From assembly GCA_963666285.1 (NCBI GenBank), contig OY762711.1: a DNA stretch of 64,000 bases; one strand, written 5' to 3'. The notes below the pieces were generated by a model that was not told the DNA's origin, did not search any database, and saw nothing but the letters and a program-made list of their open reading frames with translations. The DNA comes from Sedimentisphaerales bacterium (GTDB lineage Bacteria > Planctomycetota > Phycisphaerae > Sedimentisphaerales > SM23-30). The first letter of the stretch is position 1; the number at the start of each line of letters is the position of its first letter. Below, in pieces: positions 36,286 through 53,200 of this stretch. A program made the position numbers and the translations under genes.

Positions 36286-36985
36286 ATATGGACTCCTGTT
36301 TGTGCTTTATTATTACTGCTGCTTAATTATAAATGATCAGCGATTTCAAATAAATGAGATATTATGAGTTGTATTTGTTTTATATCAGAATTACTAACAC
36401 AAACTGCCAGACAGTCAGTTTGAAAGGTATTAAGCGAGGGTTTCCTGAAAGCGGTAGGCTATATATTTTTTATCCGACATATTGTCTTAGGGTTTGTGAC
36501 AGGAAAACAAATATAAAATCGGTAACTTCGATTTACTAATTGGATTTCAAGTATATGAAAATTATTATTTATCAAAAGTATCAAGATATAATAAGCTATG
36601 TTTGGCGATCAAATTATCCTTTGTGAAGAGTATTCGCATGTAATGCCGCATATAATGAAGTATATGGGTGTTTTTGCGATATTTCGACAATATCTTACAT
36701 ATCAATATATCAAAGGCAGAGGTCACTATTTTCTATTCATTCAATAATGAAATATGTTATAGTTGATAATGTGAAATATGTGATATCTTTTATTAATTTC
36801 TGTTAAATATAGCTCTAAAATATAAATCTTTTTACGAGAATTGTATGAAGAGGCATATTCGCATGTTTTAGACGAAGGTGTGGTTAAGCACTTTTGGCTG
36901 TTCAACATTATTATAACATCAATAACGATATTTAATTAATGCTAATACGTAAACAATTATGGCGATCTAATTTGAAACGAGGTAA

Positions 36986-37858
36986 ATGATGAAAAGTAAA
37001 CAAGCTTTTACATTGATAGAGCTTTTGGTAGTAATTTCTATAATTGCATTATTGGTGAGTATTTTAATGCCTGCCCTAAACAGAGCCAAAGAACAGGCGA
37101 AAGCTTCAGTGTGCCTTGGTAATCAGAAAGCACTAATAAGTGCCTGGATTATGTACCAGGTTGATAATGATGACAAGCTTGTTGGCGGAATCGTAAGTTC
37201 ATATGACTCCACAGCGAATGCAAGTTACTGGGGAGGAGCATTGGACTATCCTGCAAAAATATCGTGGGCACATGCCCCGCTTCGCAGTGATTTGAGAAAT
37301 GCAACAAAAGATGATCTTATATCGACTGATGGGCTGAATTGCAGGAAACGAGGGGTCGAATATGGCAAATTATGGAAGTATACAAAAACACATGATGTTT
37401 ATAACTGCCCAGGTGATAGAAAATTCAAAAATAACCCACCATATGATACTTTTGTATCATATGCCATTTCAGCTACGATGAATGGAGAAGAACATACCTG
37501 GAATGGTAATATCAAACCATATATCAATAATAGCCAGATTAAGATACCAACCGAAAAAATGGTATTCATAGAGGAAAATCCAATCGAACAAGAATGGCTG
37601 GCAGGTTCATTTGTGCTTGATTCAACAGGAAGCACTACAATGCCAAAATTAATCTGGCGAGATTATCCGGCACCATGGCACATTAAAAAAGCAACTGTTA
37701 GCTTTGCAGATGGTCACGCTCAGACAACAGACTGGAAATCTAAAACAACTCGTGAGCTGGTTATGCATGAGACGAGAATGACATTTAGTATTGGTGATGA
37801 ATTCTGTGCCGATAATCTTGATCTCTTCGATATGAATCAGTGGTATGGAGGAAGATAA
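36986..37858 (+). CDS. Prepilin-type N-terminal cleavage/methylation protein with H-X9-DG motif (DUF1559-type)
   Basis: AFTLIELLVVISIIALLVSILMPALNRAKEQAK, YNCPGD, WHIKKATVSFADGH (H-X9-DG). Confidence 0.92.
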   Translation: MMKSKQAFTLIELLVVISIIALLVSILMPALNRAKEQAKASVCLGNQKALISAWIMYQVDNDDKLVGGIVSSYDSTANASYWGGALDYPAKISWAHAPLRSDLRNATKDDLISTDGLNCRKRGVEYGKLWKYTKTHDVYNCPGDRKFKNNPPYDTFVSYAISATMNGEEHTWNGNIKPYINNSQIKIPTEKMVFIEENPIEQEWLAGSFVLDSTGSTTMPKLIWRDYPAPWHIKKATVSFADGHAQTTDWKSKTTRELVMHETRMTFSIGDEFCADNLDLFDMNQWYGGR

Positions 37859-37912
37859 GCCTTTTATTGGCATAATAGTGATATCTTTGACACTTTGAAA
37901 TATATTAAGTTA

Positions 37913-37939
37913 CTCAAACTGACCGGCGGTCAGTTTGAG
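37913..37939. repeat. Perfect 12-bp inverted repeat (possible terminator or REP-like hairpin)
   Basis: CTCAAACTGACC-GGC-GGTCAGTTTGAG; followed by a purine run, not a T tract. Confidence 0.55.
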
Positions 37940-38443
37940 AGGGAGGGGAGGTGTTGGTTTTGATATCAGGTCCAAAAGTCGAGTACGACAAATAAGATTA
38001 GATTTTAACGCAATAGTGTATATACGGGCATTGCAGCAATATACGGCCTCAGGCTGTTGTTATGCGTATATTTTAGCAATAAATCCGAAATGCAATTAAC
38101 GAGTATGTTTCATAAACCATGATATATATAGTGCTTATGAATGATATTGGGGAGCTGTGACTTATATGTTTGCATGATTATTTTATTGTTTAATGGCGCA
38201 ATTCCGGGGTTTAATAAATCTATTATCAAATCTTTTACTTACATAAAGTATTTCTAATTCTATTAATCTATAGTCTTATCTTGTATTGAGTTACATTCGT
38301 TTGCATTCATGTAAATATGATATTATTCATATTTGTTAATGAATGATTTAATATTATCTATATAAATGTAAAAAAGGTGTAACTTTATCTACATATGAGT
38401 GTAAAATTAATAAAATGATTAATAATAATGACTTGTATTTCTC

Positions 38444-38472
38444 TTGACACTTGTATGGTCGAGAGATAATAT
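38444..38472 (+). promoter_or_regulatory. Candidate sigma-70 promoter of the PspA/flotillin operon
   Basis: TTGACA (38444-38449), 17-nt spacer, TAATAT (38467-38472). Confidence 0.5.
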
Positions 38473-38656
38473 CAGTAGAGTTATTGAGATTGTTTTAAGA
38501 GATTTAGTATTCCAAACATGGTTTGCGCCATCCGTGTGTGATGGGTAACTGCAAAGCATTTTGACGATCAGGCGGTATCGAGAATACCCGATATTCAGCC
38601 GTCGTCGGTTATTCCAGTGTGTGTTTCTGGAAGCCTAATATAAGGAGTATTACATT

Positions 38657-39337
38657 ATGGGACTGTTCAAACGTTTACACAGAATCACCGTAGGCAGGAT
38701 CGAAGCATTTTTAGATCGCGTAGAAGATCCGGAAGTTGTATTTCCAATTCTAGTAAAAGAGATGGAAGCTCAGCTTGAAGAAACGGCCAAAGCAGAGTCG
38801 CGTGCGAGCGCGAATTTGAAGCAGGCTCGTCGTGAGTTGGAGCGACATCAGCAGCGATTGGAAAAATACAATCAAGGTGCAGTGCTGGCGATCAAGAAAA
38901 ATGACGAGCAGACGGCACATTTGGCGGTAGAGGCTCAGATTGACCTTGAACGTGTTATCGAACTGTCGCAGCAGAACTATGACAGGGCCGTTGATGCACT
39001 GGAACATGCAACAGCAAGTCGTCAGCGTATAGCCAGGCAGCTGGAAGAGCTGCGATCAAAGAAACAGGAGTTGCTGGCGCGTGTCAAGATAGTAAAGGCA
39101 CAAAAGAAAGTGCAGCGTAGTGTCTCGGGCGGGATTGGTTGTTCAGATAGTATTTTAGATTCGGTTGCCAGATTGGAAGCTAATATCGAAGAAGCAGAGT
39201 CAAAACTCGAGATACAGGCTTCATTAAATGGCGATGATTTACTTTATAGTCCGTTGGACAGGCAGTTGCGAGAGCTGGACCATGAAGCAGAAGTTCAGCG
39301 CAGGCTGGATGAGGTCCGAAAGCTGGCAATGAGCTAA
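38657..39337 (+). CDS. PspA/IM30 family protein, paralogue 1
   Basis: Amphipathic N-terminus MGLFKRLHRI..LDRVEDPE, long coiled coil, A..A...DE..A..A hairpin tip, EVQRRLDEV C-terminus; AAGGAG RBS. Confidence 0.88.
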   Translation: MGLFKRLHRITVGRIEAFLDRVEDPEVVFPILVKEMEAQLEETAKAESRASANLKQARRELERHQQRLEKYNQGAVLAIKKNDEQTAHLAVEAQIDLERVIELSQQNYDRAVDALEHATASRQRIARQLEELRSKKQELLARVKIVKAQKKVQRSVSGGIGCSDSILDSVARLEANIEEAESKLEIQASLNGDDLLYSPLDRQLRELDHEAEVQRRLDEVRKLAMS

Positions 39338-39464
39338 AAAAACGGATAGTATTGGAAGCTACTTAGAAAAATAATTTATGCCGGGCTGCGGCATGATTTG
39401 CAGCCTGGCAGTAAATATATTTCATGAATAACAAATGATGGTTAAATACCATCGGGAGGCAGCT

Positions 39465-40130
39465 ATGGCTATTTTTGAACGAATAAGCAGGATTATCAAA
39501 GCAAATATTAATTGGATGCTGGATATTGTTGAGCCTGCTGAAAATGAGTTAGAATCTAAAATAAAAGAACTAGAGGAAATTATCCATGAGGGCCGTGAAA
39601 GTGCGGCAATGTATGGTGCAACATACAGGCGTCTGGAGAACGATCTTGCCGAACAGGTCAAAAGTCGGGATAAATTGGCGGTTGAGGCAGAAAACGCGAT
39701 TATGGCCGGTGATGAAAACCACGCCCGAAAGCTATTGGGTGAGAAAGTCAGAATTGATGAAAAAATCGCACAGCTTGAACCGAGTGTTGCGAAAGGTAAG
39801 AAGTCTTTTGAGATGCTAAATGCAAATATTCAGAAACTACAAGGTCAGCTGCGAGAATCGAAGATGAAGCTTCGAAATTTGCAGGCCCGTAAGGATATTG
39901 CTGATGCCCAGAATGAGTTTGATAAGAAGTTGGGTGCTGCCGGTATTGTAGATGGTGACAGCGGCTTTGAGCGTTTAGAGGATGAGGTTTTGACCAGTGA
40001 GGCAGAAGTAGAAATACGACAGCAGATGCGGGGTGAGACTTTAAGTGATTTTGACCTTGAAGAGCGTTCGCGTGAATTGCAAATTGAGGCTGAATTGCAG
40101 GAATTAAAGGAAAAAATTGAAAAGAATTGA
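39465..40130 (+). CDS. PspA/IM30 family protein, paralogue 2
   Basis: Start moved to 39465 (GGAGG RBS); MAIFERISRIIKANIN, AGDENHAR, FERLEDEV..EAE, IEAELQELK are classic PspA features. Confidence 0.9.
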   Translation: MAIFERISRIIKANINWMLDIVEPAENELESKIKELEEIIHEGRESAAMYGATYRRLENDLAEQVKSRDKLAVEAENAIMAGDENHARKLLGEKVRIDEKIAQLEPSVAKGKKSFEMLNANIQKLQGQLRESKMKLRNLQARKDIADAQNEFDKKLGAAGIVDGDSGFERLEDEVLTSEAEVEIRQQMRGETLSDFDLEERSRELQIEAELQELKEKIEKN

Positions 40131-40211
40131 CTTTAATAATTACAGTGTTACTACTGTGACCTGATTTACTAATCTTCGGCCAAACATACCGTATTGTAAA
40201 AGGTGATTGAT

Positions 40212-40862
40212 ATGCCAGAATTATTACAAGAATCATTTTTGTCGGTGAACCTGATATCTACCACATTGCTGATATTGGTTATTATATATTGGCTGATGGT
40301 GATACTTGGAGCTTTGGATGTCGAATTATTTGATTTTGACTTGGATGCCGACGCAGACGCAGATATAGATATGGATGCTGATATAGACAGCCCCGGCTTT
40401 TTGCGGGCAGTATTGGAGTTTTTCTATATTGGCGAAGTGCCGATTATGGTGCTGGCAAGCATATTTATTCTTACATCATGGGTGATTTCTGTTATGGGTA
40501 ACTATTATCTTAATCCGGAAAGAGGAGTTTTGGTCGGAAGTGGTATTGCAGTTGGTAATTTATTTGTAAGTATAATATTAACAAAGATATTTTCTATGCC
40601 GGCCAGGAAGGTATTTAAGATGTTTGATAATGACCCTAATGCACCGAAGAAAGTAATTGGAAGAATAGGTGTTGTTCTGACCAGCCAGGTTTCAGATAAA
40701 ATGGGGCAGGTTGAGATAAAAACCAAAGGCGCCCCGATTGTGCTGAATGCCAAGACTGAGGATGGTACAGTATTAAAAAAAGGTGAAGAAGCGATCGTTG
40801 TAAGGCAAAATGAAGAAAAAACGTTGTATTATGTCATGCCTGTAGAAGTAGAAAAAGTATGA
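40212..40862 (+). CDS. NfeD-like/YqiJ-like membrane protein with C-terminal OB fold (flotillin partner)
   Basis: TM helix, acidic DxDxD linker, IGEVPIMV plus TM helices, IGRIGVV..GQVEI..GEEAIVV OB-fold; directly upstream of SPFH genes. ORF-track start is GTG 40203. Confidence 0.8.
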   Translation: MPELLQESFLSVNLISTTLLILVIIYWLMVILGALDVELFDFDLDADADADIDMDADIDSPGFLRAVLEFFYIGEVPIMVLASIFILTSWVISVMGNYYLNPERGVLVGSGIAVGNLFVSIILTKIFSMPARKVFKMFDNDPNAPKKVIGRIGVVLTSQVSDKMGQVEIKTKGAPIVLNAKTEDGTVLKKGEEAIVVRQNEEKTLYYVMPVEVEKV

Positions 40863-40939
40863 ATATAAGATATATATAGGCATAAGTCGAGTAACTTACC
40901 TTTTTCTTAACATACTGAAAAGAACAAATTTAGATAGTT

Positions 40940-41512
40940 ATGTTAGCAGAACTTTCAAAACCTATTATAATAACAATGGCAGTTTTCGTCGGCTTGAATA
41001 TTTCTACTTTCATTATGCTATTGTTATGCTATCGAAAGGTACCGCAAGGTAAAGCTTTGGTCAGGAATGGATTCAGCGGCTTGAAAGTTACTTTTAATGG
41101 TAAAATCGTTATACCACTATTGCATAAAGCTGAGTTTGTAGATGTTACATATAAGCGAATATTGGTGGATTGTATAAGTGATAACGCCTTTATTACTAAG
41201 GATAATGTACAAATAAATGTTCTGGCAGCTTTTTTTGTACGAATTAATAATACAGAAGAAGATGTAATAAGAGTTGTACAGGATTTGGGGTGTGAGAATG
41301 CATCTAAAATTGAGGTTATTGCAGATTTATTTAGCAGCAAGTTTAGAGAGAAATTACGAGATGCAGCGAGACAGTTTAATTATATTGATTTGGATGAAAA
41401 CCGTATGGCGTTTGGTAAAAGGGTTATGGGTTTCATAGATAAAAATCTTAACGGATATATTTTGGAAAATGTTATTATTGAAAATGTTGTAAAGATGGGT
41501 AATGATGTATAA
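40940..41512 (+). CDS. Stand-alone SPFH (Band-7) domain protein; paralogue of the N-terminal part of the downstream flotillin
   Basis: TM helix then CYRKVPQGKALVRNG..FFVRINN..LNGYILE, colinear with residues ~1-185 of 41609..43597. Confidence 0.85.
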   Translation: MLAELSKPIIITMAVFVGLNISTFIMLLLCYRKVPQGKALVRNGFSGLKVTFNGKIVIPLLHKAEFVDVTYKRILVDCISDNAFITKDNVQINVLAAFFVRINNTEEDVIRVVQDLGCENASKIEVIADLFSSKFREKLRDAARQFNYIDLDENRMAFGKRVMGFIDKNLNGYILENVIIENVVKMGNDV

Positions 41513-41608
41513 CATCTGGCAAAGCCAGAGTGAGTATTAAAAGAATATGATCAGGTACAGGACAAATACTTTGGTCGGTAAGGAAAACTAGAGACAAGGA
41601 GTTAAATT

Positions 41609-43597
41609 ATGTTAGCAGCAATTGGATCAGAAATTATAATAACAAGTATTGCTATTATAATATTATTTATAATAGGGTGTCTGGCATTATTGATGAAATG
41701 CTATAGGAAAGTCTCGCAAGGTGAGGCTTTGATTAGAAATGGTTTCGGCGGAACCAAAGTTATTTTTTCAGGTAAAATTGTTATTCCGATTTTGCATAAA
41801 GCGGAATATATGGATATATCTGTTAAGCGTATTGAAATTGACAGACGCGGCGAACAGGGATTGATCTGCAAGGACAATCTGCGTGCTGATATTGTAGTTG
41901 CTTTCTTTGTGCGGGTTAATAATACGGTTGAAGATGTTAAACAGGTAGCACAGGCATTAGGGTGTAAACGAGCTAGCAGCCAGGAGGCCCTGGTAGAGCT
42001 GTTTGATGCAAAATTCAGTGAAGCCTTGAAGACTGTAGGTAAGCAATTTGATTTTGCCGAGCTTTATACGAATCGTATGGCATTTCGCGAGCAGATTCTG
42101 GATATCATTGGTACTGACCTTAGTGGATATGTCTTGGAAGACGCGGCGATTGATTATTTGGAACAGACAGATAAATCCATGCTGAAGCCTGATAATATAC
42201 TGGATGCCGAAGGTATTAAGAAGATTACCGTGCTGACGGCTGAGCAATATGAGCTGGCTAATGCTCGTGAACGTGAAAAAGATAAGACGATAACACAGCA
42301 GAATGTTGAAGCGCAGGAAGCTATTCTGGAGTTGAATAAGCAGCTGGCGGAAGCTGAAGCCAAGCAGAAACGAGAAGTGGCGTCTATCCAGGCACATGAG
42401 GAAGCCGAGACCAAACGTGTGCAGGAAACAGAGCGTGAGCGTGCCGAACGAGCGCGTATCACAGCTGATGAAGAAATTGCAGTTGCGGAAGAGAATAAAA
42501 ATCGCCAGATAATTGTTGCGGCGAAAAACCGTGAGAAAACAGATGCGGTTGAAACCGAGCGGGTAGAACGCGATCGTGGTCTGGAAGCAACAGAACGTGA
42601 ACGCCTGGTAACGATTGCCCAGGTTGAAAAAGATAAAGTGGTGGAAGGTCAGAAGAAAGAATTACAGGCTGCTATTCGCGAGCGTGTGACAATTGAGAAG
42701 ACTGTTGTTGCCGAACAGGAACGGATTAAGGATACCCAGGAATTTGCCGGTGCCGATCGTAGCAAGCAGGTTCAGGTTACCAAGGCAGAAGAAGTTGCAG
42801 AAGCAGCATTGGTTAAAGATATCAAGGCAGCGGAAGCATCTAAACGAGCCGCTGAGTTATATGCCGAACAGCAGTTGATCGAAGCGGATGCCAACCAGAA
42901 AGCCGCAGATAAGAATGCAATTGCCAAGAAGACCCTTGCCGAAGCGTCAGTTAAGGAAGAGGCTGTTAACGGTGTAGCGGAAGCAGAGGTAATGGAAGCC
43001 AAGGCTGCGGCAATAGAAAAACAGGGAACGGCAGAAGCCAAGGTCATGGAGCTTAAATATCATTCTGAAGCAGATGGTATTCGTGATAAGGCTGAAGCGA
43101 TGAAGATATTCGACAGTGTCGGTAAAGACCATGAAGAATTCAAACTGCGTCTTAACAAGGACCTGGAAGTTGATCTTGCAGCTATTCATATCCAGAAGGA
43201 TATTGCCGAACAGCAGGCGATTTTGATTGCAGAAGCATTGAAATCAGCACGAATCGATATTATCGGTGGTGATAATACCTTCTTTGATAAGCTGGTCAGC
43301 TCAATAACCGCCGGTAAGAGTGTTGACAGGATGATTTCCAATAGTGAAGTATTGAGCGAAGTCAAGGACACATTTATTACAGGTGACGCGGAAGAGACAT
43401 CAGGTAAGATTCGAGAATTTGTCAGTCAGTTTGGTTTAAGCAGTGAAGATATCAAGAATTTGACAGTGTCAGCTTTAGTGGCCAAGATGGCAGGTCTGGC
43501 TGATAATGAACAGAAGCCTGTTTTGGAAAACCTGCTTAGTACTGTTAAATCTTTGGGTATTGGAGATAAAACTGCCAAGCAGTTCTTGAAGAAATGA
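41609..43597 (+). CDS. Flotillin-family (SPFH + AE-rich coiled coil) protein, YqiK-like
   Basis: AAGGAG RBS, TM helix, SPFH domain, NILDAEG, long Ala/Glu coiled coil. Confidence 0.92.
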   Translation: MLAAIGSEIIITSIAIIILFIIGCLALLMKCYRKVSQGEALIRNGFGGTKVIFSGKIVIPILHKAEYMDISVKRIEIDRRGEQGLICKDNLRADIVVAFFVRVNNTVEDVKQVAQALGCKRASSQEALVELFDAKFSEALKTVGKQFDFAELYTNRMAFREQILDIIGTDLSGYVLEDAAIDYLEQTDKSMLKPDNILDAEGIKKITVLTAEQYELANAREREKDKTITQQNVEAQEAILELNKQLAEAEAKQKREVASIQAHEEAETKRVQETERERAERARITADEEIAVAEENKNRQIIVAAKNREKTDAVETERVERDRGLEATERERLVTIAQVEKDKVVEGQKKELQAAIRERVTIEKTVVAEQERIKDTQEFAGADRSKQVQVTKAEEVAEAALVKDIKAAEASKRAAELYAEQQLIEADANQKAADKNAIAKKTLAEASVKEEAVNGVAEAEVMEAKAAAIEKQGTAEAKVMELKYHSEADGIRDKAEAMKIFDSVGKDHEEFKLRLNKDLEVDLAAIHIQKDIAEQQAILIAEALKSARIDIIGGDNTFFDKLVSSITAGKSVDRMISNSEVLSEVKDTFITGDAEETSGKIREFVSQFGLSSEDIKNLTVSALVAKMAGLADNEQKPVLENLLSTVKSLGIGDKTAKQFLKK

Positions 43598-43711
43598 TAA
43601 GGCATAAAGGGCGGTTAACGCCTTTGGCAAGCCTAAAATAATTGGTGTGGGCAGTATTTCTTCGGGAATTTTGTCCGCACTACTGAATGAATATGCGTAA
43701 GGATTGAGATC

Positions 43712-46700
43712 ATGGTTGATAATGATTCTACTGCTGATGTACAAAAGCCGGTTCAGGCTGATAGTACTGAACAGCTGCAGGGTGGTACATATGAGATATT
43801 GCGTGACAGATTGCTGAGTCACGGCAAGGAGCTTCAGGATCGTCTTGGGAAACTGAATGATGACCGCAAGAGCGTCTTTGGCTCTATTGAAACTAAATTG
43901 CTAAGCAGTCAGCGAATAAGTACCGATAACAATTGTGTGCCGCGTGATATGGTGCCGGTTGGCAATAAGTTTATCTTCGGCTATAATGTTTTTGTCGGGC
44001 TGCGTTCTGAGATGCAGATATCAGATGTTTTTGCTGTTTACAGCTGGCAGGACGGGCATTTTGCGGCGGAATCATTATCGCTGTTGGAAGACGAGGAATT
44101 CGCGACAGACTTTTTCAATCTGTACAAATATTATCGTAATGCTCGTTTTGTAAAATTTGCAGTTATCGGCGCTTATCTGTATATGGTTTTTCGTGTAGGT
44201 AAGTCGGTAAATGATATCAAGACATTCAAGTGGCTGATGAAGGGCGATAGCCTTAAATATTGTGATAACCGCAGCGACCATGAATATGTTTTTCCGGCTC
44301 AACATGGTTTTGAATGGAAAAAAGCTACCCAGGATATGCACCGTTCCGGTTTGAGCCCGCATATATCAATAGAGGACATTGTTTTTGTCGAGACTATCGG
44401 CGGTGATTTAACTATCAAGATCGAAGATAATACCGAGTCCGGCGAGGGCATATATTCTGAACCGGTTGAAAATCCTGACCAAACGCTTGCAGATGCAGAA
44501 ATATACTATTCCATAATCGATCATATGGTAGTTATGAAGATACGTCCATACCAGGAGCAGAAATTCAGGTATTTGATATATAACTCCAAAGTTGAGCAGG
44601 TAACTAAGGTTGATTCGATTAAAGATGCCTGTGTTTTATTGCCGGAAAATCACGGCTTGATATTTCCCAAAGGATATTATCTTCAGACTGGTGAATGCAA
44701 GAAATTTAATATAGATATCAATGATATGGTTTTTGAAAAGCAGATAAGCTCGCCAAATGGTGAAGATTATTTATTTGTTTTTTATAACAGAGAAGACGGT
44801 GTTTATGTTTTATTGTCTTATAATACAATTAACCAGTTGATCGAGAACCCGTTTATTTGTAACGGCTATTCCTGTTTCGATGATGGTACAATGCTGTTTT
44901 TTAAGGCTGATCAGGACCCGCAGAAACATCATGTTGTGCAGGTGTGGCAAACGCCGTATTACGGCCCTGATTACAGTATGGATATTCGGCATGATTCCGA
45001 GCTGTACAAGATAGGTAATAAAGATATCGTCCGGTGTATGGCTGAATGTTCGGCACTGCTTAATCTGATAGATAAAAAAGAAGGTTATGTAAACCTATAC
45101 ATGGATATTAATAAGCAGTCGCAGGATATACGTGATGCTTTTTTCTGGCTTGATTCTGAAGTCGCATATAACCTTGTTGAGCCATTGGCTGAGATATCTA
45201 TTGCGGCGGCAGCAGCGGTAGATGAATATGAAAAAGTTGTCCGAACACGGGAGAACACACGCAAGCAAATAAAAGATGTTCATAAACGGGTGACGGAGCA
45301 TCTTGAATCGATTGATTATGGAGCGTTGAATGATGTAGATGTGTTTGTGGAACATCTTGCTACATTGCGAGGTTTGCGAGGTGAGATAATCTCGCTCAAG
45401 GATTTACGTTATGCAGATTTGGAGCTGATCGAGAAGCTGGAAGAAGATGTAACCGTAGAGACAGACAAACTTAGTGACCTTTGTGTTGAATATCTGCTGC
45501 AGCCAGACGCACTTAAACCTTATAAGATTCGTGTTGATAAGTTGGGTAAGGTAGTGCCGGAACTGAAAAAGGTAACCGATGTAAGAGATAAAACCGAAGA
45601 GGTTAATCAAATATCAACAGAACTGGAGATGTTGACAGAGATTGTAAGTAATCTTAATATCTCCGATGCTACTCATACGACCGCAATTATTGACGCAATA
45701 TCACTGGTTTTTGCGGTGGTGAACCAGGTTAAGGCGGCATTAAAGAATAAACTTAACGAATTAGCGGTACTTGAAGGTAAGAGCGAGTTCAGTGCCCAGA
45801 TAAAGCTGCTGGATCAGTCTGTTATTAATTATCTGGATCTATGTGATACGCCGGAGAAATGTGATGAATATTTGTCTAAGGCATCAGTACAGCTGGAAAC
45901 TCTGGAAAGCAAATTTACTGATTTCCAGGAGTTCATTTTAGAGCTAAGCGAGAAGCGAGAGGAATTATTTAATACGTTTGAATCTCGCAAGGTTCAATTA
46001 GTTGCGAAGCGTAATCAGCTGGCAGACGCTATGATGACATCCGGCAAGCGGATATTAAATGGTATAAAAAAACGTATTGCTTCACTGGGTGATGTAAACG
46101 CTATCAACGGTTTCTTTGCATCTGATATGATGGTTCAGAAACTGCGTGAGACCGTTGAGAAATTATTGGAACTGGGTGATTCAGTTAAAGCTGATGATAT
46201 TAACAGCCGGTTGAAGAGTATACAGCAGGATGCGGTACGACAGTTAAAAGACAGGCAGGCCCTGTTTGAAGACGGTGATAATGTAATTAAGCTGGGCGAA
46301 CATCGCTTCAGGGTGAATAAGCAAAACCTGGAAGCAACGATGGTGGTTCGTGATGACCAGATGTATTATCATCTGACTGGCACAGGTTTTTTTGAAAAGG
46401 TCGCAGATGAGCAGTTGAACGGGACGAGAGAAGTCTGGCAGCTTGATAGTATTTCCGAATCCGTCGATTTATATCGGGGTGAATATTTAGCTTATAAGAT
46501 GCTGGAACATTTGAATAATGATGATGTTAAGCTGAAAATGCAGCTTTGCCGGGCAGAGTCAAACAAGGTTCTTGATTTTACTCGTGAGTTTATGGCACCA
46601 AGGTTTGCGGAAGGATATGTGAAAGGAGTTCACGATCATGACGGCAGTATGATTCTGCATAATTTGCTGCAATTAGAAAATGAGATAGGGCTACTGAGAT

Positions 46701-49039
46701 TTTCAACTCAGGCTAGAGCTATGGCTCTATTATTCTGGCAGCAGTGGCCTAACTTAGTTCAGAAAGAGATCCTTGCCGCGAAGATAGAAAGTGTCGGGCA
46801 GTTACGGCAAACGTTCAGTGCCGAACAGGCTAAGTGTAACTATATCTGCCTGCTGCGAGATTGTATGGAAGAGTATTTCGAAGGAACAGGTTTATTTGAT
46901 ATGAATCTTTTGGATTCAGCTTCTGAGTACCTTTTTGAAGAATTGGCAGATAATGACAAATGTTGTGTCAGTAAAGCTGCCAATGATATTGTTAGTGATT
47001 TTGAGAGACGTTTGAGTAAAGATCAGCATGCAAAACTGACCGAAACCATTAAAAAGTTAAAAGATGATACCTTAGGTGGTTTTATGTTGGTGCGAGACTG
47101 GGTAAGGAGTTTTGTTGAGCAGGAGAAAGGCAACCTGGTTTATGCCGATGAGGCTGCTGTATTGATCCTGGATGCCGACCGAGGCAAACGTTATATTATC
47201 AGCCAGGATATTGAACGCAAGCTGGAAGGACTAGTTGGTTCGCATAGATTAATTGATAACGGCAATTATGTTTTGAACTATTGCGACTTTTCGGACAGAT
47301 TGAGTTATCATGAGAAGGTTGTTGTTCCTAAATTTAACATGTATCGCGACCGCAAGAGAGAGCTGATCGACCAGTTTGCTGTTGATATGAAGCTTTCAGA
47401 GTTTAAGCCCAGAATATTGACTTCATTTGTACGAAATCAGTTGATAGACAAAGTTTACTTGCCGCTGATTGGTGATAATCTGGCTAAGCAAATAGGTGAT
47501 GCAGGTGAGAATAAACGTACTGATTTGCAGGGTCTGCTGTTGTTGATATCACCTCCGGGCTATGGCAAAACAACATTGATGGAGTATATCTCCAACCGGC
47601 TTGGCTTGATATTTGTAAAGATTAACGGTCCGGCAATAGGTAATAAAGTTACCAGTTTTGACCCCGGTGAAGCGCCCAATGCTGCCGCGAGAGAAGAATT
47701 GAACAAGCTCAACCTGTCATTTGAGATGGGTGATAATGTGATGATCTACCTGGATGATATACAGCATTGCAATCCGGAACTGCTGCAGAAATTTATTTCT
47801 CTTTGTGACGGTCAGCGTCGCGTAGAAGGTGTTTATAAGGGTAAGAGCCGTACTTATGACCTGCGCGGCAAGCGGGTTTGTGTTGTGATGGCTGGAAATC
47901 CTTATACTGAGAGTGGTGAGAAGTTCCGGATTCCTGATATGCTGACCAACCGTGCAGATACTTACAATATAGGTGATATTGTCGGCAATAATTATGATTC
48001 TTTTGTTTTGAGTTATATTGAAAATAGTATAACTTCCAATCCGGTACTGGGTAAGCTTGCCAATCGCAGCCAGAAGGATATTGCCGCTGTTATAAGGCTG
48101 GCTCAAACGGGTCAGCGAGAAGGGCTTGACTTTGAGGGAAGTTATACCAGTGATGAGTTAAACGAATATGTATCGATCATGAAGAAATTATTCAAGGTTC
48201 GTGATGTGGTACTGAAGGTAAATCGACAGTATATCGATTCTGCGGCACAGGCTGATGAATATCGTACTGAACCGCCGTTTCTGCTCCAGGGCAGTTATCG
48301 AAACATGAATCGTATTACAGAACGGGTATTACCTGTAATGAATGATGATGAGCTTTGGACACTGATAGAATCGAATTATCAGCAGGATGCCCAGACACTG
48401 ACCTCCGGGGCGGAATCCAACCTGCTTAAGTTTGCCGAACTTGTCGGCAGGCAAACAGAGCAGCAGGCTGCTCGCTGGCATGAGATCAAGCAAACCTTTG
48501 GCAGAAATCTGCTTCTGGGCGATGAAACACAGGATAAGGTGGCAATGGTTGTAAGGCAGTTGAATGCTTTTGGTGCCGGGCTGGATTCGATCAAGGATGT
48601 GTTGGCAAAAGGGGTTGATTCTATGGTGAATATTCCTCAACCTGATCTAAATATGAAAGAGGACGAGGACCAAAGTAAAGCGTTTGCCGAGGCATCGGCA
48701 GCAATGATTGATAAACTTGATTCTGTTGTGGGTGAATTACATCAGAGTAGAAAACAATTTACCGAGCAGGCTGAGCAGTATAGGGCGGTTGATGTTGAAA
48801 AGAATGCGGACATGTTGCTTTCTGTGCTGCAGGAGCAATATAATACAATGGAGACCTGGCTGATGAGGGTTACCAGGAATCGTAAAGGTCAGCTTAAGTA
48901 TGTAAATGAACTTGTGACACGATTTGAGAATATGATTGAGGGGTATAGCAATATGATAGAGTATTTGCGGGGCAGGTATCTGACAGATAGCAAAACAAAG
49001 TCGGCTGATGAGAATGATAAAAAACAGTCAGATGAATAA
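43712..49039 (+). CDS. 1775-aa AAA+ ATPase with DUF3686-like N-terminus (usually annotated 'DNA repair ATPase')
   Basis: GGTYEILRDRL N-terminus, HISIEDIVFVETIGGDLTIKIEDNT, coiled-coil middle, Walker A SPPGYGKTT (~47549-47575), Walker B IYLDDIQH, VMAGNP, LTNRAD. Confidence 0.85.
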   Translation: MVDNDSTADVQKPVQADSTEQLQGGTYEILRDRLLSHGKELQDRLGKLNDDRKSVFGSIETKLLSSQRISTDNNCVPRDMVPVGNKFIFGYNVFVGLRSEMQISDVFAVYSWQDGHFAAESLSLLEDEEFATDFFNLYKYYRNARFVKFAVIGAYLYMVFRVGKSVNDIKTFKWLMKGDSLKYCDNRSDHEYVFPAQHGFEWKKATQDMHRSGLSPHISIEDIVFVETIGGDLTIKIEDNTESGEGIYSEPVENPDQTLADAEIYYSIIDHMVVMKIRPYQEQKFRYLIYNSKVEQVTKVDSIKDACVLLPENHGLIFPKGYYLQTGECKKFNIDINDMVFEKQISSPNGEDYLFVFYNREDGVYVLLSYNTINQLIENPFICNGYSCFDDGTMLFFKADQDPQKHHVVQVWQTPYYGPDYSMDIRHDSELYKIGNKDIVRCMAECSALLNLIDKKEGYVNLYMDINKQSQDIRDAFFWLDSEVAYNLVEPLAEISIAAAAAVDEYEKVVRTRENTRKQIKDVHKRVTEHLESIDYGALNDVDVFVEHLATLRGLRGEIISLKDLRYADLELIEKLEEDVTVETDKLSDLCVEYLLQPDALKPYKIRVDKLGKVVPELKKVTDVRDKTEEVNQISTELEMLTEIVSNLNISDATHTTAIIDAISLVFAVVNQVKAALKNKLNELAVLEGKSEFSAQIKLLDQSVINYLDLCDTPEKCDEYLSKASVQLETLESKFTDFQEFILELSEKREELFNTFESRKVQLVAKRNQLADAMMTSGKRILNGIKKRIASLGDVNAINGFFASDMMVQKLRETVEKLLELGDSVKADDINSRLKSIQQDAVRQLKDRQALFEDGDNVIKLGEHRFRVNKQNLEATMVVRDDQMYYHLTGTGFFEKVADEQLNGTREVWQLDSISESVDLYRGEYLAYKMLEHLNNDDVKLKMQLCRAESNKVLDFTREFMAPRFAEGYVKGVHDHDGSMILHNLLQLENEIGLLRFSTQARAMALLFWQQWPNLVQKEILAAKIESVGQLRQTFSAEQAKCNYICLLRDCMEEYFEGTGLFDMNLLDSASEYLFEELADNDKCCVSKAANDIVSDFERRLSKDQHAKLTETIKKLKDDTLGGFMLVRDWVRSFVEQEKGNLVYADEAAVLILDADRGKRYIISQDIERKLEGLVGSHRLIDNGNYVLNYCDFSDRLSYHEKVVVPKFNMYRDRKRELIDQFAVDMKLSEFKPRILTSFVRNQLIDKVYLPLIGDNLAKQIGDAGENKRTDLQGLLLLISPPGYGKTTLMEYISNRLGLIFVKINGPAIGNKVTSFDPGEAPNAAAREELNKLNLSFEMGDNVMIYLDDIQHCNPELLQKFISLCDGQRRVEGVYKGKSRTYDLRGKRVCVVMAGNPYTESGEKFRIPDMLTNRADTYNIGDIVGNNYDSFVLSYIENSITSNPVLGKLANRSQKDIAAVIRLAQTGQREGLDFEGSYTSDELNEYVSIMKKLFKVRDVVLKVNRQYIDSAAQADEYRTEPPFLLQGSYRNMNRITERVLPVMNDDELWTLIESNYQQDAQTLTSGAESNLLKFAELVGRQTEQQAARWHEIKQTFGRNLLLGDETQDKVAMVVRQLNAFGAGLDSIKDVLAKGVDSMVNIPQPDLNMKEDEDQSKAFAEASAAMIDKLDSVVGELHQSRKQFTEQAEQYRAVDVEKNADMLLSVLQEQYNTMETWLMRVTRNRKGQLKYVNELVTRFENMIEGYSNMIEYLRGRYLTDSKTKSADENDKKQSDE

Positions 49040-49091
49040 AACTATGTTTTGATAAATAAGCAAGAGAAAGCAGTTTATAGAAAAACAGCAT

Positions 49092-49766
49092 ATGTCATTA
49101 ATAAAAAAATTAAAACGAATAACACTTAGCCGTATCGAGGCTTTTCTTGACACACTGGAAAATCCGGAATATATTCTGCCGCAATTGCAGAAAGAACTTG
49201 CCGGTAAGTTGGATCAGGCGATAAACGCGCAGGCAAAGTCTTTGACTGCGGTTAAATCGGCAAGGCGAAAACTGGATGAGCTTGAGGGGAAGCTGTTGAG
49301 ATATGATAAACTGGTTACCGCGGCTGTTGCGGAAAAGGATGAGCAGTTGGCGCGTAAGATATTGTCGGCTCAGATACAGGTTGAGGAAGAGAAAGGCAGG
49401 CAGCAGTCTCAATTGCAGGGTACTGAGCAGGCATATTTACAGGCGAAACAGGTATGTGAGCAACTTAAGAAAAGCCTGGATAGCTTAAAGCAGAAAGTCA
49501 GGGATTTGAAATATCGGGATACGATGACTAAACAAATGCAGGCAATGCAGAGAAAAGCCGGCTGGACCGACGATTGCAAGGCGGATTCTATCCTGGAAGC
49601 AGTCGCAAGAATGGAAGAGAAGGTAATTGAGAGGGAATCAGAGGTAGAGGTTCGGCAGGAGATGACACATCTGCTTCTGGATGATGATTCAATTGAAGAA
49701 TTGGAGAAAAAGGCAGAAGTTGATCGGCGACTTGCTGAGCTACTAAATAATAACAAGAATAACTAA
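49092..49766 (+). CDS. PspA/IM30 family protein, paralogue 3
   Basis: MSLIKKLKRITLSRIEAFLDTLENPE aligns with paralogue 1; EKDEQLAR, DSILEAVARMEEKV, EVDRRLAEL. Confidence 0.85.
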   Translation: MSLIKKLKRITLSRIEAFLDTLENPEYILPQLQKELAGKLDQAINAQAKSLTAVKSARRKLDELEGKLLRYDKLVTAAVAEKDEQLARKILSAQIQVEEEKGRQQSQLQGTEQAYLQAKQVCEQLKKSLDSLKQKVRDLKYRDTMTKQMQAMQRKAGWTDDCKADSILEAVARMEEKVIERESEVEVRQEMTHLLLDDDSIEELEKKAEVDRRLAELLNNNKNN

Positions 49767-50233
49767 ATATTAGTATCTGTCTGGTGACTTACCTAACTCC
49801 TTTACCTTTGATAATTTATAGTTAATATCCCTGAAATGCAGAAATGAATTGTCTAAGTTATTGTAAAACAATGCTTTAGGGGGGGGGTTCACTAAGCGAT
49901 CTGTACGTTAGGCAGTATCGTTTATTCAATTCTGGCAATATCATATAAATCAGCCTCAATTTGTACCAGGCGAATCATGCTATAACACTTTATCTAACAA
50001 TGCTTTATATTAATCTTTTCAGTCGAATAGGAAGTGTTGATTATTTATTGGGTTGATAATTATGTGGTTGGACTGATTATATATATGTGTGATATTAATT
50101 TAGGAGATTATCTGTAGAAAGAGGATATTCAATTCTTGTCAGTTTCACATGATTTGGTGGCAAAAGGCGAAAATTCTTTTTGAACTATATTTACAGTATT
50201 ATCTATGATTTATCTTTGGAGCAAGGTGGAAAT

Positions 50234-53200
50234 ATGACCTGTAACATGAATTTGCCTGTATTAATTTGTATATTTATGGTACTTTTCTCAGGGTTAAGTT
50301 CGGATATTTATGCTGACAGTGTTGTTACTTTTAATGAGATTATGTATCACCCGGAAGATAGCCAGGCTGATAGTGAATGGATAGAACTGTATAACCAGAT
50401 GGCTGTGGATATAGATTTATCTGGCTGGGCTATTAAAGGAGCCGTTAAATATACATTTCCAGAAGGTACATTTATATCAGGCGGGAGCTATATAGTTGTC
50501 GCAAAGCTACCGGATGAGTTAATTTCACTAGCCGGAACAGAAAATGTTTTCGGTCCGTTTGATGGCCAATTATCTAATAGTGGTGAATCGCTCAGGCTGG
50601 AAACAGGCAGTGGTCGAGTGATGGATTCTATTACATATAACGATAAAGGCAGCTGGCCGATTGGTCCGGATGGCTCCGGGGTATCACTTTCAAAGAAAAA
50701 TAAGAATCAGGCCAGTCTATATTCTCAAAACTGGACTCATAGTCATCAGGTTGGTGGTACTCCAGGCGCTGAGAATTTTCCGGTAAAGGATCTGAGACAA
50801 AATCGTGTTGAGTTAGTAGGAAAAAATGATGTTTGGAAATACTGGGACTGGGGAATAGATTTGGGTACTGAATGGAAAGTTTCAGGTTATGATACTACAT
50901 ACTGGAGGCAAGGTGCAGCTGGATTTGTCTTTGGATATAATGTTGAAACGGGTGAGATGGAACCCGTTACGACTTTATTTAGTACAGGTTTGGATGATGA
51001 TGGCTTTCCGCTTACTACTGGAAGTTATGATTTGCATTATGAATTTACAGCTACCGGCGAACCTGTTTATGCTATGATTAACCATTCGGCATGGCTTGCT
51101 AATGACAGCAGTTCACAATGGATTGGATTCAGTAGTTCAGGAACTGATTCGCAACCTGTTGGACTTTTTCCAATTTCGACAACATTTGATCTCGATGGAT
51201 GGGACCATGAAACTGTTGGTATAACGATGTACATCGCAGTTGACAATGCTGTTGGCGATGTGCTGATCAATGGAATTAGTACAGGCATAACTTGCAATGT
51301 TTATGATAGCTGGTGCGGTCCTTTTGTGATAGATTCCGGTTTTGTTGCAGGCCGGAATGAATTGACTTTTAACTTTATAAATGAAGGTGACAGTATTAAT
51401 CCGGCAGGTTTGCGGGTTTGGATGGAAGCCGAAGCAATGACCAGCCTTGGTAATACTGAACTGACGTCCTGTCCTCAAACGTGTTATTTTCGAAAAAACT
51501 TTCTATATGATCCGACTGATGAGACAACAGTGGGGTTAAGTCTGGATTTTACTGTTGATGATGGTGCGGTATTTTACCTGAATGGTCAGGAAATATATCG
51601 CTATAATATGCCTGACGGAGCAGTTGAATACAGTACGTATGCCGAGACAGATATTGTAGAGATTTTATCAAATGGAGAGATTCAAGTACCGGCGGAAGCA
51701 TTGGTTGCAGGAGAAAATATTTTTGCTATAGAGGTGCATAATGTCGCAGCAGGAGAGAGTGATTTTTATTTTCAGGCTGAACTAACAGCAATTGAAACTC
51801 CAATAGATACAGCAGAAACAGTAAATCTGGTATTTAATGAATTATCTGCTTCTGAAGCTGGTCCTTTTTGGGTTGAAATGGTGAATTATGGAAATGAAAC
51901 GCTTGATTTGACAGGTGTGGTAATTCACCTCGATGGTCAAGTAGACCAGGAATATGTGTTACCATCAGGGGTATTAGGTGCTGGAGACTATATAGTTCTG
52001 GATGAAACAGTGCTTGGTTTTTCTCCTGAAGTAGATGATAAAATGTATCTTTACTGGGCAGGTAAACAGTTATTGATGGATGCCGCAATTGTTAAGGATG
52101 TCCTGCAAGGTAGAGAAACGCCTGATTCGGACTATTTTTCTTATCCGCAAATATGTACACCGGGTGAAGATAATATTATTGGAACTAATAATGATATTGT
52201 CATTAATGAGATAATGTATCACAAGGGAGATATCTTTGCCAGTCCTGGTGTCTACGAAACAGTTGTACTTGTCTCGAAAGGTCATCAGGCCAAGGTTTTG
52301 GTACCTTCTGCCAGTCAGGTCGATACCTGGACTGGTGCAGATGAGCCGTTTGATGATTCTTTATGGCAAGATGGATATTTAGGAGTCGGCTACGATAACG
52401 AAGGTGACTATAATTCTGATATTGGAATAGATATTCATGATGATATTTATAACCAATGTCAAACTTTTTATGTTCGGACCGAGTTTGAACTGACAAATAC
52501 TACAACTGTGGGTTCAATGACATTGAGGATGAAATACGATGATGGATTCATCGTTTATCTAAACGGAATTAAAATTGCTGAGGTGAACGCACCTGATGAT
52601 CCTGATTGGACTAGCAGTTCAACTGGTTCGCATGAAGCAAGTGAATATGAAACGTTTGATGTTTCTGATTACGTAGAGGCATTAAAAAACGGAAGTAATA
52701 TTCTGGCCATACAGGGTTTTAATTATGGTGTGACAAGCTCTGACTTGCTGGTTCTGCCTGAATTAAGCATTGTAGATGAAATTGTAGCTCCAATTGAAGC
52801 CGATGAATCCTCTGAAGAATGGGTAGAATTATATAATCGGGGTGCAGATACAGTTAATCTTGAGGGATGGGAATTAGATGGAGATATATCATATGTATTT
52901 GAAGCTGCTACTCTGCTTAATGCCGGTGATTATTTGGTTGTAGCGCGTGATCGCGAGGCATTATTGACGGATTGGCCAGAAATTAATATCGTAGGTGATT
53001 TTGATGGGCGGTTGAGCAATTCTATTGGTTCAGTTATTTTACGTGACCCGCATGATAATATTGCAGATGAAGTAAAATATTATGATGGAGCACCATGGCC
53101 TGAGGATGCTGACGGTTATAATGCCAGTCTTGAATTATGTAATCCTTTTGCAGATAATAATTCGGCTCTCTCATGGTCGGCAAGTAACGAGCAGGATAAG

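Follow-up and report, generated by a model that had tools for sequence, protein, structure and literature searches.

The window, a stretch of 64,000 nucleotides from a Sedimentisphaerales bacterium (contig OY762711.1), carries at positions 38657-49766 seven intact open reading frames (ORFs), all on the plus strand and separated by gaps of 52-127 bp, which agrees with the co-oriented, closely spaced set described in the first-pass annotation. These genes and the two elements upstream of them are as follows.

38444..38472, plus strand: sigma70-like promoter (TTGACA-17-TAATAT), a 10/12 match of a kind for which chance sites are common
38493..38659, plus strand: structured 5' leader RNA, candidate cis-regulator, with covariation and no Rfam match
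38657..39337, plus strand: pspA1, 226 aa, PspA_IM30 protein, best-conserved paralogue
39465..40130, plus strand: pspA2, 221 aa, canonical paralogue; ORF open from 39435 (231 aa)
40203..40862, plus strand: yqiJ, YqiJ/YuaF-type membrane protein of the short NfeD-like class, three predicted transmembrane helices
40940..41512, plus strand: SPFH-only gene, 190 aa, transmembrane segment and SPFH domain, sporadic partial paralogue of the flotillin
41609..43597, plus strand: flotillin-type gene, 662 aa, transmembrane segment, SPFH domain and long coiled coil
43712..49039, plus strand: DUF3686 AAA+ ATPase gene, 1775 aa
49092..49766, plus strand: pspA3, 224 aa, basic and fastest-evolving paralogue, grouping as sister to pspA1; lacking in some relatives and tracking with the RNA leader

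The pspA2 start at 39465 is likelier than that at 39435, because it is preceded by a Shine-Dalgarno (SD)-like site and orthologues start there. No further ORF of at least 90 aa lies on this strand from the promoter to pspA1 or between the seven genes. The ORF list and profile searches revealed no pspB/pspC-like gene in the operon, as had been noted earlier, and no CesT/YjfI-like gene, nor are there pspB, pspC or pspF neighbours at the locus. A TTGAC-type box is similarly placed in many relatives (upstream regions of 51 loci), among which upstream genes vary and no conserved upstream regulator gene was found in Sedimentisphaerales. A terminator scan returned 14 sites versus 8.3 +/- 3.3 expected, none of them convincing 3' of pspA3.

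Two of the original gene labels stand in part. The gene called NfeD-like does belong to the short NfeD-like class, but its product matches YqiJ_N and has no NfeD match in Pfam. Similarly, two SPFH proteins are indeed encoded here, but the SPFH-only gene is sporadic among relatives and the 662-aa flotillin has no direct Band_7 or Flot match at E<=0.1 and no PDB sequence match, its SPFH assignment stemming from 49% identity over 158 aa to its Band_7-positive 190-aa neighbour.

Three PspA clades

All three PspA-like proteins score well above the PspA_IM30 (Pfam) cut-off of 33.9 bits (90.6 for PspA1, 91.5 for PspA2 and 69.9 for PspA3) and their family profiles align with solved Vipp1/PspA chains over ~220 residues (100, 141 and 68 bits), which bears out the ESCRT-III-like nature originally proposed for them. 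In profile alignments, each keeps the full helix 0-5 architecture, terminates no more than some 10 residues from Vipp1 position 217 (helix 5/6) and shows no C-terminal MIM-type tail. They are the only PspA matches genome-wide, an ESM Atlas search returned PspA_IM30 clusters only, and scores against the TIGR02977 equivalog (81.6, 78.8 and 44 bits versus a cut-off of 242.95) place none of them with canonical E. coli-type PspA. PspA2 is the most canonical paralogue by profile score, while PspA1 and PspA3 are sister clades in quick trees and share 33% identity, versus 27% for PspA1/PspA2 (window alignment), the grouping that had been read from the sequence at first sight.

Both PspA trees are quick trees, one of which recovers clades with supports of 97 (PspA1), 96 (PspA2) and 90 (PspA3) that span split and contiguous layouts. 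dN/dS is 0.04-0.35 for the three proteins (10 locus pairs, with 5/30 values undefined owing to dS saturation), and paralogue pairwise identities correlate across 18 loci (Spearman 0.66-0.84); the ORF set left aside 24 partial, over-long or start-unresolved ORFs. The three paralogues are three old clades under purifying selection, and this conservation, together with recurrence across genomes, rules out a strain-specific decaying duplication. One of the two quick trees places four unlabelled representatives in the PspA3 group and a fifth in PspA2.

The conserved polymer contacts of PspA are R44, W71, K74, R88, L91, L125, R142, F168 and E179 (PMC11746142), in a numbering carried over here from Synechocystis PspA via E. 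coli PspA. PspA2 mostly retains them (R/K44 in 45/46, F168 in 41/46) and has N14. PspA1 shows alternatives (G74 and V168, each in 55/55, and R14), as does PspA3 (G74 in 18/20, V168 in 16/20); in both, R44, W71, K74 and F168 are replaced and R88, L125, R142 and E179 largely retained. At the level of sequence, the changes of PspA2 and of PspA1/3 are complementary, and a PspA heteropolymer would be a plausible outcome. E126, which is among the three residues that PspA needs for its own ATPase activity (PMC11746142), has mostly been substituted in each of the three proteins.

The operon is patchy, being present in 15/301 genomes of the order Sedimentisphaerales, and the three clades also occur outside Planctomycetota, in Verrucomicrobiota as well as Phycisphaerae (one protein cluster includes a member labelled Acidobacteriota), which makes the suggested link to elaborate membranes in this lineage a weak one. 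In all such locus and genome counts, kin are not independent. pspA2 directly follows pspA1 in 52/52 loci that have 500 bp or more of downstream sequence; string matching accounts for 51 of them, and the last is L075, whose pspA1 is split by a frameshift. This count sets aside 16 duplicate loci, 10 single-copy loci and 12 pspA1 loci with less than 500 bp downstream. pspA3 is optional, since pspA1-pspA2 occur without a detected pspA3 in G1015, G1054 and G1099 (completeness not given), and in G533 it is intact at an unlinked locus. G684 (96% complete) has kept the leader, pspA2 and pspA3, with an unrelated 80-codon ORF replacing pspA1, and its PspA2 and PspA3 sit on long branches in a quick tree. 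Finally, G299 (99% complete) is devoid of any PspA, and its ATPase branches from within the trio-linked ones; both flanks have therefore been lost.

The giant ATPase

This DUF3686 protein, a family to which we presume bacE of P. aeruginosa also belongs, consists of a beta-rich N-terminal domain whose best fold matches are WD40 propellers, a long helical arm of ~700 residues, a single MoxR/dynein-type motor (about residues 1225-1580, with an AAA_5 match in Pfam) and a helical C-terminus. Foldseek with residues 22-1190, the arm forming part of this one query, found propeller and solenoid proteins only, and a PDB sequence search matched only the P-loop region. Walker B is DD in 28/28 and a pre-sensor-1 hairpin is present. 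The motor fold is closest to CbbQ (Z 16.4, rmsd 3.7 over 252) and NorQ (Z 15.7, rmsd 3.6 over 241), followed by dynein (Z 13.8), Rea1 (Z 13.7) and Vps4 (Z 11.6 and 11.2). The motor is nearest MoxR/dynein-type AAA+ and falls outside the Vps4 clade.

These features bear directly on the model of the first-pass annotation, that is, a three-subunit ESCRT-III-like heteropolymer remodelled directly by the giant ATPase as a convergent equivalent of Vps4, which we now consider unlikely. It gains from the presence of the ATPase in every adequately assembled pspA1 genome examined (two pspA1 genomes with a contig broken inside the flotillin gene have no ATPase match), from the trio-linked ATPases grouping as one clade, in which only one loss is nested (FastTree), and from the loss of E126 in most members of all three PspA families and of R44 in PspA1/3, for which an external motor could be useful. 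Moreover, 4/4 genomes with pspA1 in the Verrucomicrobiota sample have the ATPase (10/251 overall); in one of the four, the pspA pair and the yqiJ-flotillin-ATPase block lie at unlinked sites. This co-occurrence points to a closer link between PspA and the ATPase than a motor step centred on flotillin assumes. Against the model stand the lower Z of Vps4, an ATPase with no MIT match in Pfam at E<=0.1 and PspAs without a MIM-type tail, while E126 also varies among generic PspAs (20/49). No trio-specific domain was found in the ATPase, the C-terminal helices being also present in ATPases without PspA. Among 39 further genomes of the phylum that encode the ATPase, many of them fragmented assemblies, just one has a PspA match within 10 kb of it, which leaves 38/39 ATPases with no PspA nearby, and 11/39 of these genomes have no PspA match anywhere. 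In addition, some trios have no ATPase directly downstream, and L106 and L104 couple the trio to a different flotillin, L106 having no ATPase downstream. The constant neighbours of the ATPase are instead yqiJ and flotillin, which it directly follows in 28/28 full-length loci aligned. A dedicated ATPase working by Vps4 logic is thus not what the locus suggests, and the Vps4 analogy is weak.

The structured leader

The first-pass annotation made no mention of the covarying leader (38493-38659). In its P1 helix, an anti-SD at 38506-38513 pairs with 38644-38651, followed by P2 (about 38517-38559), P3 (38564-38605) and P4 (38607-38635), the last two each with a U.G pair and then a bulged N-A. Compensatory changes are seen in 15/20 pairs and 96.1% of cells are paired (0/500 shuffles). 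Predicted SD pairing exceeds 0.5 in 23/39 leaders versus 0/39 shuffled controls, P1 being weak or absent in 16/39. Rfam gave 0 matches in 36000-51000, and a permissive search of 38400-38700 reached E 0.75 at best. The leader accompanies known pspA3 in 30/30 loci or genomes (weakly in L149), including G684, which lacks pspA1, and no significant match was obtained in three pspA3-less genomes. The genome-wide leader search covered 150 of 350-1727 candidates in each genome. In two of these genomes and in L116, a CII-like HTH gene lies upstream in the leader's place. An unfiltered search of pspA3-less or leader-less loci produced matches directly 5' of pspA1 at E 0.26 (L116) and E 0.94 (L151), which we take to be SD/ATG matches rather than the leader. 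As a separate candidate cis-regulatory motif, the leader may explain control without PspF or PspB/C.

It also invites a model in which PspA2 would be the sole polymer-forming effector, PspA1 a chaperone or inhibitor replacing BacA, which is a CesT protein, and unbound PspA3 a leader-binding translational repressor, released on membrane damage. pspA1 does stand where the CesT gene is otherwise found, immediately ahead of the effector, and the bac operon is described as being under negative control by BacA in the available text of PMC10948618. The joint presence and absence of leader and pspA3, the HTH gene taking the leader's place and the basic character of PspA3 (most basic paralogue in 15/18 loci, K/R60 in 20/20) would fit, and the two similar bulged stems may be of the type common in protein-binding operators. 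However, the joint absence comes from some two independent lineages, represented by assemblies of unknown completeness; the basic residues of helix 1 would suit lipid binding just as well; PspA3 is the fastest-evolving paralogue although the leader core is highly conserved; and single-copy relatives share P4 but are without K/R60. No PspA protein is known to bind RNA, and this model appears improbable to us. More doubtful still is a bolder combination, in which an obligate PspA1/PspA2 copolymer would be remodelled via a flotillin-anchored MoxR/dynein-type motor, while basic PspA3 would double as a feedback repressor that binds the leader RNA, so that membrane damage would register through the titration of an ESCRT-III-fold protein away from the mRNA that encodes it.

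A proposed membrane-maintenance operon and its relatives

The explanation that we favour, with moderate confidence, is a PSP-type membrane-maintenance operon of the bac or YqiJ-flotillin-AAA+ kind, in which a specialised PspA set replaces a single PspA and its CesT chaperone. From what is observed directly, namely the genes and their order, the folds, the clades and the selection on them, and the structure of the leader, we infer a mechanism in which (i) the PspA1 and PspA2 pair would co-assemble into a composite ESCRT-III-like polymer on the damaged inner membrane, (ii) PspA3 may join as an accessory subunit, acting as a cap, as a modifier of curvature or as a feedback regulator, (iii) YqiJ and flotillin would form a membrane platform recruiting the polymer, (iv) the MoxR/dynein-type ATPase would act mainly on this platform and only indirectly on PspA, and (v) the folded leader could gate translation of the first gene via SD sequestration. 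This is supported by pspA1-pspA2 adjacency, the clades with their correlated identities and selection, the complementary residues, the concerted loss in G299, the unlinked pspA3 in G533, the ATPase-yqiJ-flotillin order, leader covariation and the predicted SD pairing. Against it count the trio not being strictly obligate (G1015, G1054, G1099 and G684), the Verrucomicrobiota PspA-ATPase co-occurrence and the weak or absent P1. That the paralogues are co-regulated but each work alone, as homopolymers for different lipids, curvatures or stresses, is very unlikely. Their complete architecture and the single losses speak for it, as does the occurrence of PspA in several copies in over 10% of genomes with only PspA or PspC and in dyads/triads in cyanobacteria; the fixed adjacency, the concerted loss in G299, the faster evolution of PspA2/3 where pspA1 has been lost and the conserved contacts replaced in PspA1/3 speak against it.

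The PspA-YqiJ-flotillin-propeller-AAA+ core is a published bac-type operon (Ravi et al., 2024; P. aeruginosa bacA-F), a parallel to P. aeruginosa that the first-pass annotation had drawn and that PMC10948618 and PMC11237479 corroborate in their available text, whereas three specialised PspA paralogues in such an operon are new as far as we have searched. The literature covered contained no three-PspA operon of this type in planctomycetes and no pspA leader RNA, although either could already be listed in supplementary datasets (PMC5737381, PMC11109978, the Ravi web app, the Popp data); the term PspA occurs neither in the main text of PMC5737381 nor in one supplement of PMC8632094.

As far as its available text goes, Ravi et al. 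(2024; PMC11237479) describe an operon of CesT/Tir-PspA, YqiJ/YuaF, Band-7/flotillin and beta-propeller-coiled-coil-AAA+ genes (example ANH61663.1), as well as abbreviated operons without the CesT/Tir-PspA pair, and mention PspA dyads/triads for cyanobacteria only, along with two PspA genes in the Paenibacillus lia locus. Our locus has the gene content of this type, with YqiJ, flotillin and propeller-AAA+ in the same order and PspA upstream. Unlike it, our locus lacks the CesT/YjfI chaperone, has three dedicated-clade PspA genes rather than one YjfJ-type PspA, and adds the RNA leader and the sporadic SPFH-only gene. In the sections available on P. aeruginosa bacA-F (PMC10948618; PMC2587700), PspA (BacB) likewise occurs with a short-NfeD gene and flotillin (PMC13086221), and the six genes are reported to be co-transcribed by RT-PCR and negatively controlled by the first gene product; that operon is described with a single PspA, a CesT-fold BacA and a proposed sigma54 promoter, in contrast to the three PspAs, sigma70-like promoter and structured leader found here.

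B. subtilis pspA-ydjGHI (samGHI) and yuaF-floT, as portrayed in the accessible portions of PMC8581546, PMC13713150 and PMC9239133, also have an SPFH protein linking PspA to the membrane, which supports the scaffold step, but these systems have another SPFH subfamily, a single PspA and no giant ATPase. MoxR-type CbbQ/NorQ, dynein and midasin (Rea1) are the closest structures to the motor and have a pre-sensor-1 hairpin in common with it; it differs from them by the fused propeller and ~700-residue arm, the DD Walker B and the lack of a VWA partner gene in the operon.

Archaeal and eukaryotic ESCRT-III with Vps4, as presented in the available text of PMC7619361 and PMC8281802, resemble the locus in keeping superfamily paralogues together, with divergent interface residues and an adjoining AAA+ ATPase; here, this ATPase is MoxR/dynein-like with no MIT detected, and the PspAs are without a MIM tail. 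According to the part available of a 2025 review (PMC7619361), bacteria usually have one PspA, Vps4-like ATPases are apparently absent from them, the control of PspA assembly without Vps4 is open and composite PspA polymers are only a possibility. Against this background, the locus offers three small soluble proteins that form a defined and conserved set and differ by complementary residue changes. With its natural variants (PspA1+2 only, PspA2+3 only, none, single-copy relative), heteropolymer formation is directly testable in vitro, and the operon could serve to test whether bacteria build multi-subunit ESCRT-III-type polymers.

Composition and spread of the operon

The first-pass annotation had proposed a seven-gene operon, and in an ORF scan of the window all seven genes are intact and in the same orientation, with intergenic gaps of 52-127 bp. 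The features are as follows.

38493-38659, structured RNA leader (helices P1-P4) ahead of pspA1
38657-49766 (+), operon: pspA1, pspA2, yqiJ-type gene, SPFH-only gene, flotillin gene, DUF3686 ATPase gene, pspA3
47309-48586, ATPase motor, with Walker B DD instead of DE
36986-37858, N-methyl pilin-like protein
8180-34380 and 50180-57079 (+), long run of co-oriented large ORFs

ORFs flanking the operon look secreted or carbohydrate-active; one (785 aa) has laminin-G-like and Asp-rich repeats, and another (2299 aa) is presumably CotH-like, judging by a motif. The PspA identity of the three paralogues also held, each scoring above the Pfam cut-off (and all far below the E. coli-type PspA equivalog cut-off). 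They are the only PspA matches in a profile search of the host genome, and in profile alignments each family covers the full length of solved Vipp1 and PspA chains (PspA2 141 bits, PspA1 100, PspA3 68). The third gene is YqiJ-type (three predicted TM helices), the fourth encodes a TM segment and Band_7 only, the fifth is flotillin-type with an SPFH region 49% identical to the fourth-gene product, and the sixth encodes the DUF3686 AAA+ protein. Besides the window, four distinct loci carry an SPFH-only gene (three distinct proteins), with mutual identity of 37-58%.

Homologues with taxon names put the host in the order Sedimentisphaerales (class Phycisphaerae). Within this order, pspA1 is found in 15 of 301 genomes, all of which have pspA2 (13 in the genome search, two at locus inspection), and 14 of which have pspA3 (one cut by a contig end; the genome missing it is 70% complete). 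The operon is patchy, because three same-genus genomes have none. Of 64 distinct loci with pspA1, 52 have enough downstream sequence to judge, and in 52/52 the next gene is pspA2.

Layouts of the pspA trio (L, loci of relatives; G, their genomes)
Split, with the window's arrangement: 13 further loci
Contiguous pspA1-2-3: six loci (L100, L102, L104, L106, L108, L112)
Contiguous trio, then yqiJ-flotillin-ATPase: L149
pspA1-2 only: G1015, G1054, G1099

Three contiguous loci (L100, L102, L112) have no flotillin gene downstream within available sequence, which in L112, as in L108, stops shortly after pspA3; L104 and L106 have a different flotillin type there. In these two (L104:2234-3655, L106:5675-7829) the trio is joined to a small membrane-type gene and this shorter flotillin (484 aa in L106), downstream of which the giant ATPase is absent in L106. 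Carriers outside Planctomycetota include Verrucomicrobiota, judging by titles and names (4/251 genomes in a sample), and one protein cluster includes a member named Acidobacteriota. Unrelated genes lie between the flotillin and ATPase genes at L071:5289-5912 (207 aa, no Pfam match) and L151:8886-9329 (147 aa), and another planctomycete (G020, L135:6179-8079) has two divergent generic pspA genes ~530 bp apart, unrelated to the trio.

That the three copies might be a decaying, strain-specific duplication is countered by clades, dN/dS and conservation across layouts, which make the trio old and under selection. In quick trees, PspA1, PspA2 and PspA3 form separate clades across all layouts, and PspA1 and PspA3 join, at 99, a single-copy planctomycete PspA group whose context is pspA-yqiJ-other flotillin (L118, L120, L123, L127-L132, in other planctomycetes) and in which DUF3686 was absent from 4/4 genomes checked. 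Values of dN/dS are 0.04-0.35 (10 locus pairs; 5/30 undefined, with dS saturated), and median identity among orthologues is 55, 51 and 42% (PspA1, 2, 3) vs 26-37% between paralogues. G299 has lost all three pspA genes, from both ends of the operon, and G533 retains pspA3 at an unlinked site. Strict obligacy has exceptions: G684 is without pspA1, three genomes are without detected pspA3, and pspA1 is truncated or chimeric in L124 and frameshifted in L075. In G684 (L039:129-530), an intact leader and start codon precede an unrelated 80-codon ORF in the pspA1 position, and its PspA2 and PspA3 are long branches; in G1156 (L149:6196-6885), PspA1 and PspA3 are ordinary, but PspA2 shows extreme divergence (a branch of length 3.5, N-terminal helix altered).

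The ATPase, its partners and the PspA paralogues

AlphaFold2 models of the ATPase (pLDDT 84 and 82) predict that a beta-rich N-terminal domain, similar in fold to WD40 propellers, is joined with a long helical arm and a single motor, whose best structural matches are CbbQ (Z 16.4), NorQ (15.7), dynein (13.8) and Rea1 (13.7), with Vps4 at 11.6 and 11.2. The Walker A motif is intact, and 28/28 aligned ATPases have DD at Walker B, a sequence feature that may make hydrolysis slow or partner-dependent. The idea of an ATPase dedicated to PspA is not supported: the family occurs in 40/301 phylum genomes, and of the 39 other carriers just one shows a PspA gene less than 10 kb away, with PspA matches absent genome-wide from 11. 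In the class sample, trio genes accompany 9/15 ATPase carriers, with none nearby in 6/15. The constant partners of the ATPase are therefore yqiJ and flotillin. The reverse dependence is strong, all four Verrucomicrobiota pspA1 genomes having the ATPase (10/251 overall; hypergeometric 1.3e-6, a value that linkage, kinship and choice of centre inflate), and the ATPases linked to the trio form one clade, so that direct, Vps4-like action on PspA is retained as an unlikely reading.

At the fixed polymer contact residues, as named in a study of Synechocystis PspA (PMC11746142), PspA2 retains R/K44 (45/46), F168 (41/46) and N14 (45/46). PspA1 and PspA3 share G74 (55/55 and 18/20), V168 (55/55 and 16/20) and R14, and have R44 and W71 replaced; W71, present in 41/49 generic PspA, is mostly replaced in PspA2 too (W in 10/46). 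PspA3 is the most basic paralogue in 15/18 loci (median pI 8.8 vs 5.5 and 5.1 for the other two). We infer that redundancy would explain these complementary conserved changes less well than hetero-assembly or a regulatory role would. Chaperone and RNA-repressor roles for PspA1 and PspA3 would be one such regulatory arrangement, which we rate as doubtful next to co-assembly; three independent homopolymers are improbable given the changes in PspA1 and PspA3.

The leader RNA

Some 160-odd bases ahead of pspA1 are conserved, and the flanking DNA is not. In 39 distinct sequences, 96.1% of cells in hairpins P3 and P4 are paired, with compensatory changes at 15/20 pairs; none of 500 shuffles attains any of five measures and slid controls drop to 33-52% paired, for a structure derived from the same, motif-anchored alignment as was tested. 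P3 and P4 each have a U.G pair, then a bulged N-A. Hairpin P2, further upstream, exceeds shuffled sequences in stability (mean z -2.2; 21/39 below -2). A separate 5' strand (helix P1) is predicted to pair with the Shine-Dalgarno site (probability >0.5) in 23/39 leaders vs 0/39 controls.

Rfam has no match to the leader. Our model matches once each in G000 and G429 (150 scored of 350-1727 candidates per genome), and has no match in ATPase loci lacking PspA, at E. coli pspA or yjfJ, or ahead of generic pspA genes, where the best hit (E 0.94) lies away from the gene. Single-copy relatives give a weaker, P4-centred match upstream; their clade has the P4 hairpin, seemingly plus a conserved upstream structure of its own. 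The leader is present in 30/30 loci or genomes with known pspA3, including pspA1-less G684, and undetected in 3/3 genomes lacking pspA3, two of which carry, in its place upstream, a gene for a CII-like HTH protein; control at the RNA level may there have given way to control by a protein. This phage CII-like (CP76) gene lies immediately upstream of pspA1 in leader-less operons at L116:1295-1834, L150:4201-4734 and L151:13493-13972 (Pfam match on L116, the sole one scanned). L078, outside the set with known pspA3 status, has no leader.

A candidate membrane-repair operon and its known relatives

The reading that we favour, at about even chances, is a membrane-repair operon in which (i) PspA1 and PspA2 would co-assemble on a YqiJ-flotillin platform, (ii) PspA3 would be accessory, (iii) the ATPase motor would service the platform and (iv) the leader would gate translation.

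Related systems are known. In a published operon, genes for YqiJ/YuaF, a Band-7 flotillin and an AAA+ ATPase with propeller and coiled coil come after a CesT-PspA pair, and versions without PspA are more widespread (Ravi et al. 2024, PMC11237479), and the six genes of the P. aeruginosa bac operon are co-transcribed, CesT-fold BacA exerting negative control (PMC10948618). Genomes with several PspA copies are known in general (PMC9239133), with dyads and triads in cyanobacteria (PMC11237479) and multiple copies in magnetotactic bacteria (bioRxiv 2022.11.08.515611), and composite PspA polymers are so far a proposal (PMC7619361). Neither the trio nor the leader was found in the literature searched, and supplementary data of published surveys may bear on both. 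The operon described here is a bac-type PSP operon without CesT. It does not belong to the ESCRT-III/Vps4 systems, whose logic the first-pass annotation had seen as a parallel, its motor being nearer CbbQ, NorQ, dynein and Rea1 than Vps4, and it resembles a multi-paralogue ESCRT-III system by analogy only.
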